From: Escherichia coli
Lineage (GTDB): Bacteria; Pseudomonadota; Gammaproteobacteria; Enterobacterales; Enterobacteriaceae
Strand: one strand, 5' to 3'
Length of the DNA stretch: 64,000 bases
Assembly: GCF_003018255.1 (NCBI RefSeq)
Contig: NZ_CP027440.1
Part shown: positions 26,980 through 44,384 of the stretch, in pieces
Layout of the letters: each line of letters starts with the position of its first letter
Position numbering within the stretch: the stretch's first letter is position 1
Notes under the pieces: generated by a model
The model's database searches: none
The model's input: only the letters and a program-made list of their open reading frames with translations
What the model was told of the DNA's origin: nothing
Program-made: the position numbers and the translations under genes

Positions 26980-26997
26980 CTGTCATAAAGCTGTCAC
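26980..26997 (+). promoter_or_regulatory. Pho box (PhoB binding site) of the phoA promoter
   Basis: ctgtcataaagctgtcac matches the direct-repeat CTGTCAT consensus; -10 tatagt at 27008-27013. Confidence 0.85.
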
Positions 26998-27058
26998 GGC
27001 CGAGACTTATAGTCGCTTTGTTTTTATTTTTAATGTATTTGTACATGGAGAAAATAAA

Positions 27059-37809: not shown

Positions 37810-40800
37810 TTATTTCACTGCAAACATACTTTCCAGTTTGCTGTAGCCCAGGCCGTTGATCTTTTTCACTTTGATCTGCACCGGAATACGCTCTTTCATC
37901 GCTTCTACGTGGCTAATCACACCGATGGTTTTGCCGCTGGCGTTCAGGGCATCCAGCGCATCAAGGGCGGTATCCAGCGTTTCGCTATCCAGCGTGCCAA
38001 AACCTTCATCAAGGAACAGCGAGTCAATACGCGTTTTATGGCTGACCAGATCCGAAAGCGCCAGCGCCAGCGCCAGACTGACGAGGAAACTTTCGCCGCC
38101 GGAAAGGGTACGGGTATCGCGTACCGCATCTGCCTGCCAGGTATCAACAACCTCGACTTCCAGCGCCTCGCTGGCTTTGCGCTGTAACAGATAGCGCCCG
38201 TGCAGCCGGGTAAGTTGCTGATTAGCGAGATGGACTAAATTATCCAGCGTCAGCCCCTGGGCAAACTTGCGGAATTTATCGCCCTCTTTGGAACCTATTA
38301 GCGAATTCAGATATCCCCAGTCCTCAACCTGCTGCGTCATTTGGGCAATTTGCTGCATTAAGGTTTGTTGTTGCTGACGGTTATCTGCATCCTGCTTCAG
38401 CTGCTGGCGAATCTCGCCTTGACTCGTGGTGTTTTCACGCAACTTTTGGTGAGTTTGCGCTAGCTCTTGCTGAATCTGCTCCATCGTCACAGTGAGAGAC
38501 AACCCGCCAGGTCGGTGTTGCTGATGCTGTGTCAGCGTTTCTGCTGTCTGAGTGACCAGCGTTTGCGCCTGACGGCGCTGGTTTTCCAGATTCTGCTTGA
38601 GCTGTTCCAGCTGCGTTAGTGTTTGTTCATCCATTAGCGCCGCAAGGAACGCCTGCTGATCGTCAAAGACGCTCGCCTGTAGCGCGGTGTCAAACTGCGC
38701 CTGGGCTTTTTGCAGACTTTGCGCCGCCAGAACATCCTGTTGCTGTAACGTCTGCTGCTGGCTGTGTAATGCGAGACATTGTTCATGAACCTGCCGCCAG
38801 TTTTCCAGCGCCACAGTTTCTTCGCTGTGCGGGAGCTCATCACTTTGCGGCAACGTTTCCAGAATCGGCGTCAGCTGCTGAATACGGTTTTGCAGCGCGG
38901 TTAATTCGTTCTGGCGTTGCTGCCAGCTCTGCGCTTCTTGCTGACGTGTCGCCAACCAGCTCTCTTCTTCATCTTCCTGTGGCAATGTCAGTGCATAACC
39001 CGCCAATGCCGTTAAGAGTTGCTGCTGGCGTTGTTCAATTTGCTGTTGATACTGGATAATTTGCTGATTATGTGCGGCAATCTGCCCTTGTAATTCATGT
39101 CGTTGGCTGAGTAACCGCAGCTGGCGTTCGTGCTCATCTTGTGCATCCAGCCACGGTTGAATATCGTCCTGTGGCTGCAAGGTGATATTGAGGCTGGCCG
39201 TGACGGCTTGCCATTGTTGAGTAAGTGCTTGCTCATCTTGTCGGAGGCTTTGCGCTTCGTTTTCATCGCGCTGAAGCTGCTTCGTTAATGCATCCAGTTG
39301 CCCGCGCAGCGCCGCACCTTCTTCGCCGAGCTTTTTCACTTCTTTTTCCAGCGTTAATAGCCGGGCCTGATTAACACCCGGTTCCAGCGCCTGATACGCC
39401 TCGACCGCTGGATGGCTGGTGGAACCACAAAGTGGACAAGGCTGACCCGCCTGTAACTGCGCGCGCTGGGCTTCCAGCGTTTTGATGCGCGCTTCCTGCT
39501 CGCAAATGGTTTTCACATCGGCAAGTTGCTGCGTCTTTTCTTTATAACGCTGGCGCATTTCGTTAAGTGCGGCATTACGTTGCGTCTGTTCCAGAGTGAC
39601 ATTCTGGATAGTGACCATTAACTGCGCCAGACGTTTTTGTTGGGGAACAATCTGCCCATGCAGCGCGACCAGGCGCTGACGCAGTGGGCGTTGCTCGGCA
39701 TGTTGCGCCAGGGCGCTAGCAACTTCATCGGCGGTTAACGTCAACGTGATCGCCGCAAGCGTATTAAGTTTTTGCTCAGCATGGGTTAACTGTTGCTGCC
39801 ATTGCCGCAGATGCTCGCGATCGCTGGTTTGTTGGGAGAACTGCGCACGCCAACCCGCCAGTTCGTTGTTCCACTGACGGAAGCGGTCGTGTTCCTGTAA
39901 CCAGGTATTCAGGCTTTGTTGCTGCTGCTGTAATTCTGCTGACTGCTTCGCCGCGTGGTGGCGAATGCTCGCGCGAAGCGCCATTGTGCTCTGTAAGCGA
40001 GTATTTACTTCTTCAATCTGCTGGCGAGTATGCGCCAGCGCCGCGCTGTGTTCTGCGATGCGTTCCCAGTGCGGACGAAGATTTCGTGCCGGTTGTGCCA
40101 GACTGAGCGCCGCCAGTTGAGGTTGCGCTTTTTCTTCTTCGGCTAACGCCTGTTGCAAGGCCTGCTGACGGCGGCTGGCTTCTTGCTGCAATTCGTCCAG
40201 ACGCGTTAACCAGTTTAGTGATTGTTGTTCTTGCTGCTGCGCGGTAATTAACTGTTTTTCTTCGTCAGTAAGTACCTGCAAACTCGCTGTCAGCGATTGC
40301 ACTTGTTCCGGCGTGAGCAACGCGACGCCGCTGGCCTGCGCTTGCAGCTTCTCCAGCTCTGTGCGGGCCGATTTGTGCTGCTCAAACACCATCGACGAGA
40401 TTTGTCCGTAGATTTCAGTGCCGGTTAACTCCTCGAGCAATTCCGCGCGTTCTTTGGGTTTGGCATTCAGGAAGGCAGCAAATTGCCCCTGCGAAAGCAG
40501 CATCGAACGGGTGAAGCGCCCGTAATCCAGTCCGGTTAACGTCGCCGTCAGTTCCAGCTTATCTTTCACTTTGTCGGCGAGAATTTTGCCATCGGCGCAG
40601 CGCGCCAGCTCTACGCGTGGCACCTGCAAATTACCGTCGGGCTGGTTACGCGCCCGATTCTGGCTCCAGAACGCACGGTACGCTTCACCTTTGACTTCAA
40701 ACTCCACTTCCGCCAGACATTCGGCGGTATCGCGGGTCATGAGATCATTTTGCGATTGTGAAACGTTAGAAAGGCGCGGAGTTTCGTGATACAGCGCCAG

Positions 40801-40953
40801 ACAAATGGCATCCAGCAGGGTCGTTTTTCCCGCGCCGGTTGGACCGGTAATGGCAAACAGCCCGTTGCTGGCGAACGGCTCGCGGGTGAAATCAATCTTC
40901 CATTCGCCTTTTAATGAGTTCAGGTTTTTCAGGCGCAGGCTGAGAATTTTCAT
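37810..40953 (-). CDS. sbcC: SbcCD nuclease ATPase subunit SbcC (SMC-like)
   Basis: 1047 aa; N-terminal Walker [10 protein letters not shown], very long Q/L-rich coiled coil with CPLCGS zinc hook, C-terminal LSGGE signature and Walker B. Confidence 0.95.
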
Positions 40954-42152
40954 GCTTCGTGTTCTCCTGCGAGGGTATGCAACGTTGTGGCGAAAAGATG
41001 CTGCAGACGTTGCTGCTGCGATTCATCCAGTTCTTCCAGTGCCAGACGGCGATTGAACACCTCTTCGACGCTGAGTTCGCTGAGGGTTTCACGCTGTTGG
41101 CTGGCTAACACACGCTCGCGCTGTTCACGACTCCGGCGTACCAGCAATACTTCGACAGGCAATGATTCGGTTAATGCCTGGATTTTGCGCTGAATATCAT
41201 GCAGATACTCATCAGTAGTGATTTCGATATCCAGCCAGACAGGTGGCTCCTGTGATACATCGCGCCACTGTTCCAGCTGTTCGGTAATCGACGCCAGATC
41301 GCCTTTCAGCACCGCCATGGGTTGCGTTACCGGTACGTTCAGGTTTTCCACGCTCTCTAATTTGCCGTTTGAAAATGTCACCAGATGGACATATTTACTC
41401 TTACCGCATTCATCAAAACTCAGTGGAATGGGGGAACCGCAATATCGAACATGTTCCATGCCGCCAATAATCTGTGCACGGTGAATATGCCCGAGCGCGA
41501 TGTAGTCGGCTGGTGGAAAGTTTTGTGCCGGAAACGCGTCCAGCGTGCCAATATAGATGTCACGCACGGCATCACTTTTACTGGCACCCACAGTTGTTAA
41601 ATGTCCCGTGGCGATGATGGGCAGAGGCTGATCGCCGCGCAGTTTGCAGGCATCGGCATAGTGTTGTTGATAATAATCAGTAATAGCCGCCAGCAAATGC
41701 TGCTGTTTTTCAATACCGTTAAGCCCCGCCTGGCTGGTAATAATGTCACGTGGGCGTAAAAACGGAATGGGGCACAGTACTGCGCCTGGTGTCCCGTCGC
41801 GACGAGGCAAGATTTGCGGCGCATGTCCGGCGCTGGCGACCACGGTTGTATTGAGGAACGCCATGATATCGCGCGATTCATTCAGCGTGGCGACCGAGTC
41901 ATGGTTTCCTGCCAGTACCACCAGATGACAGCCAGTTTGCTGTAAATTGACAACAAAACGGTTGTATAACGTGCGGGCGTAACTGGGCGGCGAGCCGGTA
42001 TCGAAAACATCACCGGCAACAATAATCGCATCCACCTGATGGGCTTGTGCTGTCTCCAGCAGCCAGTCAAGAAAAGCCTGATGTTCGGTTTCGCGGCTTT
42101 TACTGTAGAAGTTCTGGCCGAGATGCCAGTCTGAGGTGTGAAGGATGCGCAT
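40950..42152 (-). CDS. sbcD: SbcCD nuclease subunit SbcD (Mre11-like phosphoesterase)
   Basis: ATG at 42150-42152 ([12 protein letters not shown]...), 400 aa; calcineurin-like phosphoesterase motifs; 4-bp overlap with sbcC. Confidence 0.95.
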
Positions 42153-42260
42153 AACGGTTCCCTGGCGAAAAAGCATGGGCGCGATTATACCCAAACAGAT
42201 GTGCCATTTGCTTTTTTCTGCGCCACGGAAATCAATAACCTGAAGATATGTGCGACGAGC

Positions 42261-42310
42261 TTTTCATAAATCTGTCATAAATCTGACGCATAATGACGTC
42301 GCATTAATGA
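42261..42310 (+). promoter_or_regulatory. Pho boxes of the phoBR promoter
   Basis: ttttcataaatctgtcataaatctgacgcataatgacgtcgcattaatga: tandem CTGTCAT-type repeats ~35-80 bp upstream of phoB. Confidence 0.85.
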
Positions 42311-42341
42311 TCGCAACCTATTTATTACAACAGGGCAAATC

Positions 42342-43031
42342 ATGGCGAGACGTATTCTGGTCGTAGAAGATGAAGCTCCAATTCGCGAAATGGTCTGCTT
42401 CGTGCTCGAACAAAATGGCTTTCAGCCGGTCGAAGCGGAAGATTATGACAGTGCTGTGAATCAACTGAATGAACCCTGGCCGGATTTAATTCTCCTTGAC
42501 TGGATGTTACCTGGCGGCTCCGGTATCCAGTTCATCAAACACCTCAAGCGCGAGTCGATGACCCGGGATATTCCAGTGGTGATGTTGACCGCCAGAGGGG
42601 AAGAAGAAGATCGCGTGCGCGGCCTTGAAACCGGTGCGGATGACTATATCACCAAGCCGTTTTCTCCGAAGGAGCTGGTGGCGCGAATCAAAGCGGTAAT
42701 GCGCCGTATTTCGCCAATGGCGGTGGAAGAGGTGATCGAGATGCAGGGGCTAAGCCTCGACCCGACATCTCACCGGGTGATGGCGGGCGAAGAGCCACTG
42801 GAGATGGGGCCGACAGAATTTAAACTGCTGCACTTTTTTATGACACATCCTGAGCGCGTGTACAGCCGCGAGCAGCTGTTAAACCACGTCTGGGGAACTA
42901 ACGTGTATGTGGAAGATCGTACGGTCGATGTCCACATTCGTCGCCTGCGTAAAGCACTGGAGCCCGGCGGGCATGACCGCATGGTGCAGACCGTGCGCGG
43001 TACAGGGTATCGTTTTTCAACCCGCTTTTAA
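42342..43031 (+). CDS. phoB: phosphate regulon response regulator PhoB
   Basis: 229 aa; receiver domain plus OmpR-type winged helix; recognised as PhoB. Confidence 0.97.
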
Positions 43032-43088: not shown

Positions 43089-44384
43089 GTGCTGGAACGG
43101 CTGTCGTGGAAAAGGCTGGTGCTGGAGCTGCTACTTTGCTGCCTCCCGGCTTTCATCCTGGGTGCATTTTTTGGTTACCTGCCCTGGTTTTTGCTGGCAT
43201 CGGTAACAGGACTGCTTATCTGGCATTTCTGGAATTTATTGCGCCTTTCATGGTGGCTGTGGGTGGATCGTAGTATGACCCCGCCACCGGGGCGTGGTAG
43301 CTGGGAACCGCTACTATACGGCTTACACCAGATGCAGCTGCGAAATAAAAAACGCCGCCGTGAACTGGGCAATCTGATTAAACGCTTTCGTAGCGGCGCG
43401 GAGTCGCTGCCCGACGCGGTGGTGCTGACCACGGAAGAGGGCGGTATTTTCTGGTGTAACGGTCTGGCGCAACAAATTCTTGGTTTGCGCTGGCCGGAAG
43501 ATAACGGGCAGAACATCCTTAACCTGCTGCGTTACCCGGAGTTTACGCAATATCTGAAAACGCGTGATTTTTCTCGCCCGCTTAATCTGGTGCTCAACAC
43601 CGGGCGGCATCTGGAAATTCGCGTTATGCCTTATACCCACAAACAGTTGCTGATGGTGGCGCGTGATGTCACGCAAATGCATCAACTGGAAGGGGCGCGT
43701 CGCAACTTTTTTGCCAACGTGAGCCATGAGTTACGTACGCCATTGACCGTGTTACAGGGTTACCTGGAGATGATGGATGAGCAGCCGCTGGAAGGCGCGG
43801 TACGCGAAAAAGCGTTGCACACCATGCGCGAGCAGACCCAGCGGATGGAAGGGCTGGTGAAGCAATTGCTGACGCTGTCGAAAATAGAAGCCGCACCGAC
43901 GCAGTTGCTCAATGAAAAGGTTGATGTGCCGATGATGCTGCGCGTTGTTGAGCGCGAGGCTCAGACTCTGAGTCAGAAAAAACAGACATTTACCTTTGAG
44001 ATAGATAACGGCCTCAAGGTGTCTGGCAACGAAGATCAGCTACGCAGTGCGATTTCGAACCTGGTCTATAACGCCGTAAATCATACGCCGGAAGGCACGC
44101 ATATCACCGTACGCTGGCAGCGAGTGCCGCACGGTGCCGAATTTAGCGTTGAAGATAATGGACCGGGCATCGCACCGGAGCATATTCCGCGCCTGACCGA
44201 GCGTTTTTATCGCGTTGATAAAGCGCGTTCCCGGCAAACCGGCGGTAGCGGATTAGGGTTAGCGATCGTGAAACATGCGGTGAATCATCACGAAAGTCGC
44301 CTGCATATTGAGAGTACAGTAGGAAAAGGAACACGTTTCAGTTTTGTTATCCCGGAACGTTTAATTGCCAAAAACAGCGATTAA
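43089..44384 (+). CDS. phoR: phosphate regulon sensor histidine kinase PhoR
   Basis: GTG start 43089; 431 aa; H-box [10 protein letters not shown]; HATPase N/G boxes. Confidence 0.95.

Follow-up and report, generated by a model that had tools for sequence, protein, structure and literature searches.

The 64,000-nucleotide stretch of Escherichia coli DNA analyzed here (the window) carries two operons that diverge from a 189-bp intergenic region at 42153–42341. On the minus strand lie sbcD (40950–42152) and sbcC (37810–40953), the downstream gene of the sbcDC operon; on the plus strand lie the response regulator gene phoB (42342–43031, with its ATG at 42342) and the co-transcribed sensor kinase gene phoR (43089–44384). 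These assignments follow the RefSeq annotation of an identical match, mapped onto the window and, for sbcD, combined with the sequence itself: the start codon of sbcD is the ATG at 42152, and the TTG at 42194 that appears in a mechanically produced list of open reading frames was rejected. The intergenic region shows no differences from K-12 MG1655 over its whole length, and its Pho box, −10 hexamer, and repression site (all described below) are those of the K-12 phoBR promoter (Makino 1986, 1988, as cited in Gao & Stock 2018, PMC6194859). At 115 of 115 nucleotides the window matches the phoB promoter fragment of K-12 employed in EMSA, and the nearest differences from MG1655 fall inside the sbcD and phoB coding sequences (42044, 42087, 42089, and 42497) and are of synonymous scale. 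Of 5426 complete E. coli genomes, 5424 have a match to a 301-bp query that includes the whole intergenic region (42100–42400), and in 5267 of them the identity is at least 99%.

Upstream of phoB, the consensus scan, repeat detection, published ChIP motifs, and a core shared across genera all identify a Pho box on the plus strand, the activation site TTTTCATAAATCTGTCAT at 42261–42278. Its half-sites, TTTTCAT (42261–42267) and CTGTCAT (42272–42278), belong to two 11-bp direct-repeat units that span 42261–42282; Tandem Repeats Finder reports an exact two-copy 11-bp repeat, TCATAAATCTG, at 42264–42285. Scanning the 64-kb window with the classical consensus CTGTCATAWAWCTGTCAY at up to three mismatches returned three matches where 0.23 were expected, a number reached by none of the 100 shuffles used as a control. 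These matches are the box itself (two mismatches), an overlapping register of it at 42272–42289, and the phoA box (one mismatch, described below); within 42153–42341, the same scan at up to three mismatches found no further Pho-box-like sequence. The 18-mer at 42261–42278 is also the PhoB ChIP motif given by Fitzgerald 2023 (PMC10294691) and Yang 2012 (PMC3465305). The repeats could be taken for functionless AT-rich intergenic sequence, a reading that the general AT-richness of intergenic DNA would accommodate. However, the three matches all fall at known Pho promoters, the box is invariant across genera, and direct binding and expression data have been published for it, so that a chance resemblance is the least credible of the readings considered here.

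The box occupies positions 64–81 bp ahead of the phoB start codon; counted from the first base of the box, the sbcD start codon is 109 bp away, in keeping with the distance of about 110 bp given in a preliminary description of this DNA. Measured from its center, the box stands at −72.5 from phoB and −117.5 from sbcD; identical center distances are printed in Yang 2012 (PMC3465305). The box is on the phoB strand, and 10 bp separate its end at 42278 from the start of the −10 hexamer CATAAT (42289–42294, plus strand), which is assigned from the sequence, from its conservation across genera, and from the primers designed for mutagenesis by Gao & Stock 2018 (PMC6194859), from which CATAAT can be deduced as the −10 element (NATNAT in primer RG293-r, while rp2 spares TTATG). 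Transcription of phoB probably starts near 42301. The preliminary description had extended the tandem CTGTCAT-type repeats as far as 42310. That account stands for 42261–42282, where the repeats form the Pho box; the remainder, 42283–42310, is composed of a degenerate third unit (CTGACGC), the −10 hexamer, and a repression site on the opposite strand. A scan of 42050–42450 with the sigma-70 consensus found no promoter, a result that is uninformative rather than negative because the phoB and sbcD promoters both lack a good −35 element.

Two further repeat-like features were observed in the intergenic region. An inverted half-site-like sequence, TTGTAATAAAT, lies on the minus strand at 42320–42330 in the phoB 5′ UTR and pairs with the half-sites of the Pho box as an inverted repeat; it was rejected as a functional half-site, being kept in none of Citrobacter, Enterobacter, and Photorhabdus, and looks like a chance occurrence. 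The same appears to hold for a 27-nt direct repeat of 70% identity (42189–42215 and 42238–42264).

The arrangement at phoB recurs at phoA, where the preliminary description had correctly noted a box at 26980–26997. This box, CTGTCATAAAGCTGTCAC, lies on the plus strand and is followed 10 bp downstream by the −10 hexamer TATAGT (27008–27013, plus strand). Both promoters thus have an 18-bp box made of two CTGTCAT-type half-sites that lies on the strand of the regulated gene and ends 10 bp short of the −10 hexamer; this shared spacing is diagnostic of a box that substitutes for the −35 element. Unlike phoB, phoA lacks an antisense repression site, and PhoB-dependent repression of phoA was not found by Gao & Stock 2018 (PMC6194859). 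The phoA promoter also differs slightly from that of K-12. At 26991 the window has C (GCTGTCAC) where K-12 has T (GTTGTCAC), turning the second half-site into a perfect CTGTCAC; among the 5426 complete E. coli genomes, about 616 have the C allele and about 4771 the T allele, and the window therefore carries the minority allele. Farther downstream, beyond the phoA −10 hexamer, the T-run at about 27027–27032 has one T fewer than in K-12.

Binding of PhoB and PhoB-dependent transcription of phoBR are taken here from papers on K-12, where the sequence is identical. A PhoB ChIP-seq peak labeled sbcD/phoB was reported with a score of 11, and RNA-seq in the same study gave 32,731 for phoB RNA in the wild type versus 34 in ΔphoB, a significant and approximately 1000-fold dependence on PhoB (Fitzgerald 2023, PMC10294691). 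Microarray values in Yang 2012 (PMC3465305) place phoB at +8.5 log2, accompanied by ChIP-chip binding. Taken with the geometry shared with phoA, the in vivo binding and expression data bear out the textbook PhoB autoregulation proposed in the preliminary description. The phoBR operon has the features expected of a Pho regulon member, namely the repeat structure, a box whose position and strand let it replace the −35 element, and conservation in relatives.

In the PhoB/OmpR family, dimers of phosphorylated PhoB (PhoB~P) bind head to tail on two half-sites and recruit the sigma-70 holoenzyme, through contacts for which the box must adjoin the −10 hexamer. At this locus, phosphate limitation leads PhoR to phosphorylate PhoB, and a head-to-tail PhoB~P dimer occupies the Pho box at 42261–42278, replacing the −35 element 10 bp before CATAAT. 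The bound PhoB~P recruits sigma-70 RNA polymerase and raises transcription of phoBR, a positive feedback. Once PhoB~P is abundant, the weak site on the opposite strand, over the −10 hexamer (42277–42305), is also filled and the promoter damped, a delayed negative feedback.

This low-affinity auto-repression site (42277–42305, minus strand) was located by an exact match to the phoB-rp EMSA oligo of Gao & Stock 2018, AATGCGA-CGTCA-TTATG-CGTCA-GATTTAT. It comprises two antisense CGTCA tracts, seen on the plus strand as TGACG at 42284–42288 and 42294–42298, which are 5 bp apart and overlap the −10 hexamer. PhoB~P binds the site weakly (KD 4.9 uM by EMSA); mutation of both tracts abolished late repression and doubled PhoB levels, while strengthening of one tract increased repression (Gao & Stock 2018, PMC6194859). 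The coupled negative feedback was thus already described in 2018, and the Pho box and phoBR autoregulation are textbook knowledge. Among 73 distinct relatives, the promoter-proximal tract (42294–42298) reads TGACG in only 21, and 46 carry G for A at 42296, mostly as TGGCG; judged from these sequences, PhoB negative feedback may be stronger in some genera than in others. A second, intragenic PhoB-bound site, ATTCACAGCACTGTCATA, lies within phoB at 42444–42461 on the minus strand and is an exact match to a ChIP-seq motif of Fitzgerald 2023 (MG1655 417245). Its TTCAC...CTGTCA core is retained in most of 105 enterobacterial loci; codon and site constraint are inseparable here because the core overlaps the conserved peptide DYDSAVNQ.

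Two sets of related loci were compared. The first, retrieved by means of the PhoB protein, consists mostly of distant proteobacteria and Firmicutes, and the matches listed include three informative enterobacterial loci. Among these listed matches, a divergent sbcD upstream of phoB is found in Enterobacter, Citrobacter, and Photorhabdus, and is absent from the Vibrio, Shewanella, Pseudoalteromonas, and Arsenophonus loci. Alignment of the E. coli, Citrobacter, Enterobacter, and Photorhabdus intergenic regions recovers only two conserved islands. One is GATTATA at 42183–42189, which reads TATAAT on the sbcD strand; the other is TTCATAAATCTGTCATAAAwCTGACGCATAATG at 42263–42295, which takes in the Pho box, the spacer, and the phoB −10 hexamer and varies among Citrobacter, Enterobacter, and Photorhabdus only at 42272 (C/T), 42278 (T/C), and 42282 (T/A). 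The sequence between the islands is unalignable and variable in length, with an insertion of about 70 bp in Photorhabdus. An extra CTGTCAT-like half-site precedes the Pho box, within the nonconserved spacer, both in Citrobacter (GGCTGTCATAATT) and in Enterobacter (TTGTCATACAGG); the four-genus alignment shows none there in E. coli.

The second set was obtained by scanning metagenome contigs with the conserved 33-nt block, which yielded 122 usable loci and 89 distinct sbcD-side sequences. Having been selected by that block, these loci are uninformative about its conservation, and the evidence that the Pho box is conserved comes instead from the four genera chosen by protein, together with Fig. 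9 of Fitzgerald 2023 (PMC10294691). The metagenomic loci do bear on the sbcD side: every locus with enough flanking sequence has a divergent sbcD, and in 76 of the 89 distinct sequences TATAAT lies 36–40 nt before the sbcD ATG; eight have no TATAAT, mostly with TATACT in its place. The Pho box, by comparison, lies anywhere from 105 to 302 bp away from the sbcD ATG in the same 89 sequences, with no preferred phase. With the −10 hexamer fixed relative to sbcD and the distance to the box drifting, the sbcD promoter therefore appears to be independent of the Pho box: sbcD would have its own promoter, tied to the gene and free to drift relative to the box. The divergent order of sbcD and phoB is kept across the sampled Enterobacterales, which could in principle reflect coupling.

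In the window, the predicted −10 hexamer of sbcDC is TATAAT at 42184–42189 on the minus strand, supported by the conserved island in the four-genus alignment and by the position of TATAAT in the 89 sequences. A weak −35 element, AGCAAA, is predicted at 42207–42212 on the same strand, and its poor quality in E. coli fits the low sbcD read count given below. Transcription of sbcD would start near 42176, a placement that follows from the predicted hexamer; the Pho box would then be reversed and centered at about −93. A box activating sbcD would have to occupy the 18 nt ending 10 bp before its TATAAT (42217–42200, minus strand), and these match the Pho box consensus at only about 5 of 18 positions, so that no box takes the place of the sbcD −35 element. 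A PhoB site does lie upstream of sbcD, namely the shared site 109 bp from its ATG, and the spacing between this box and the sbcD promoter is not conserved. The preliminary description had held the boxes to be arranged for divergent control of sbcDC and phoBR; that claim is not supported, given the fixed sbcD −10 hexamer, the drifting distance to the box, the lack of any box positioned for activation of sbcD, and the published expression data described below.

Some additional features were seen around this promoter. A terminator-like hairpin with a T-run, TGGGTATAATCGCGCCCA TGCTTTTTCG, lies at 42176–42193 (minus strand), overlapping the −10 hexamer of sbcD; as a terminator it was rejected as a probable chance occurrence, the stem not being conserved among relatives. 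Between the −10 hexamer and the ATG, the sbcD leader (42153–42183, minus strand) contains a block resembling GCTTTTTyGCCAyGGrA that is visible by eye in most of the 89 sequences and may be only the ribosome-binding region or may be a leader element. Transcription of sbcDC is reportedly dependent on starvation and RpoS, according to work by Darmon et al. of 2007 entitled 'SbcCD regulation and localization'.

The proximity of the box to sbcD had raised the question whether phosphate status affects SbcCD expression, and the comparison of wild type and phoB mutant proposed in the preliminary description has already been published. By RNA-seq under one growth condition, sbcD RNA was 274 in the wild type versus 271 in ΔphoB, which is not significant (Fitzgerald 2023, PMC10294691); sbcD is not mentioned in the supplements of that study. 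Yang 2012 (PMC3465305) includes sbcD, with this shared motif, among the PhoB targets, and its microarray comparison of wild type and ΔphoB under phosphate limitation gives −0.643 log2 for sbcD (p = 0.0486) and −0.677 log2 for sbcC (p = 0.0443), that is, expression about 1.5-fold lower with PhoB for both genes at borderline significance. In the same study, a plasmid-borne sbcD::luciferase fusion of 499 bp differed significantly between the two strains. Primer mapping places the reporter fragment at 42153–42651 of the window, so that it contains the active phoB promoter and the intragenic PhoB site. Any effect of PhoB on sbcDC is accordingly small, repressing, and not reproduced. The possibility that sbcDC shares the PhoB site has thus already been raised and tested in the genome-wide studies of 2012 and 2023, and a literature search for a link between sbcDC and phoB, or between SbcCD and phosphate starvation, returned nothing relevant.

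Activation by the Pho box in both directions, driving sbcDC as well as phoBR, would bring SbcCD into the phosphate-starvation response. The 109-bp proximity and the conserved divergent gene order are what would suggest such an arrangement. However, sbcD holds steady at about 270 normalized reads while phoB rises about 1000-fold (Fitzgerald 2023, PMC10294691), and the sole change reported for sbcD, in Yang 2012 (PMC3465305), is downward. Activation by PhoB needs a box 10 bp from the −10 hexamer, whereas this box would lie near −93 from the sbcD start and reversed; the variation of its distance from sbcD among relatives (105–302 bp) points the same way. Bidirectional activation is accordingly very improbable and already contradicted by the RNA-seq data.

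A weak, PhoB-dependent repression of sbcDC is the main rival reading, although it too appears unlikely. Heavy loading of PhoB~P and polymerase at the phoB promoter could disturb the sbcD promoter some 125 bp away through occlusion of upstream DNA, through competition for polymerase, or through PhoB bound at both 42261–42305 and 42444–42461, and sbcDC would then fall about 1.5-fold in phosphate starvation. Consistent with this, both genes of the operon shift together in the 2012 microarray data (−0.64 and −0.68 log2), and the reporter difference in that study was obtained with a fragment in which the active phoB promoter is accompanied by the two PhoB sites (Yang 2012, PMC3465305); the core promoters are also close, with roughly 48 bp between the sbcD −35 element and the Pho box. 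Against it, the p values (0.044–0.049) are borderline among the 287 genes called, and the reporter was plasmid-borne, with the direction of its effect not given in the available text (Yang 2012, PMC3465305). The RNA-seq comparison shows sbcD unchanged, and the ChIP-chip data set behind the earlier study was judged lower in resolution and sensitivity by Fitzgerald 2023 (PMC10294691). The spacing between the Pho box and sbcD, moreover, is not conserved. Neither the RNA-seq comparison, which is the better data set, nor the drifting spacing among relatives supports coupling of sbcDC to the box. That the 2012 drop in sbcD and sbcC is real and arises from interference with the weak sbcD promoter, whether by the induced phoB promoter or by PhoB at two or three nearby sites, seems a slimmer prospect still.

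A comparable case is found at cusR/cusC, where, as at sbcD/phoB, a single PhoB-bound site lies between divergent genes, in this case with regulation on both sides (Yang 2012; Fitzgerald 2023). There, the two start codons are 77.5 and 79.5 bp away from the center of the box, as against the asymmetric 72.5 and 117.5 bp at sbcD/phoB, and expression of cusC is PhoB-dependent in both studies (PMC3465305 and PMC10294691), whereas sbcD is unchanged by RNA-seq.

These data lead us to conclude, with a probability of roughly 80%, that the element at 42261–42310 belongs to the autoregulatory promoter of E. coli phoBR and that sbcDC is transcribed from a promoter of its own, the adjacency of the two not amounting to shared control. 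Independence of sbcDC from the Pho box, considered as a separate claim, is likely. Transcription of sbcDC would proceed from the back-to-back promoter at TATAAT 42184–42189 (minus strand), whose weak −35 element would keep expression low; the Pho box, centered about 93 bp upstream of the probable sbcD start, would have the wrong orientation and position for contact between PhoB and sigma-70 there. Occupancy by PhoB would therefore have no effect on sbcDC, or a marginal one only. The adjacency of sbcD and phoB is a matter of conserved gene order rather than of shared control. Should the interference suggested by the 2012 data be true after all, it would trim hairpin-nuclease levels during phosphate starvation. 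The comparative spacing is a modest addition to what was already established for this promoter; it supports the view that closeness to a transcription factor site located between divergent genes does not imply control of both genes.
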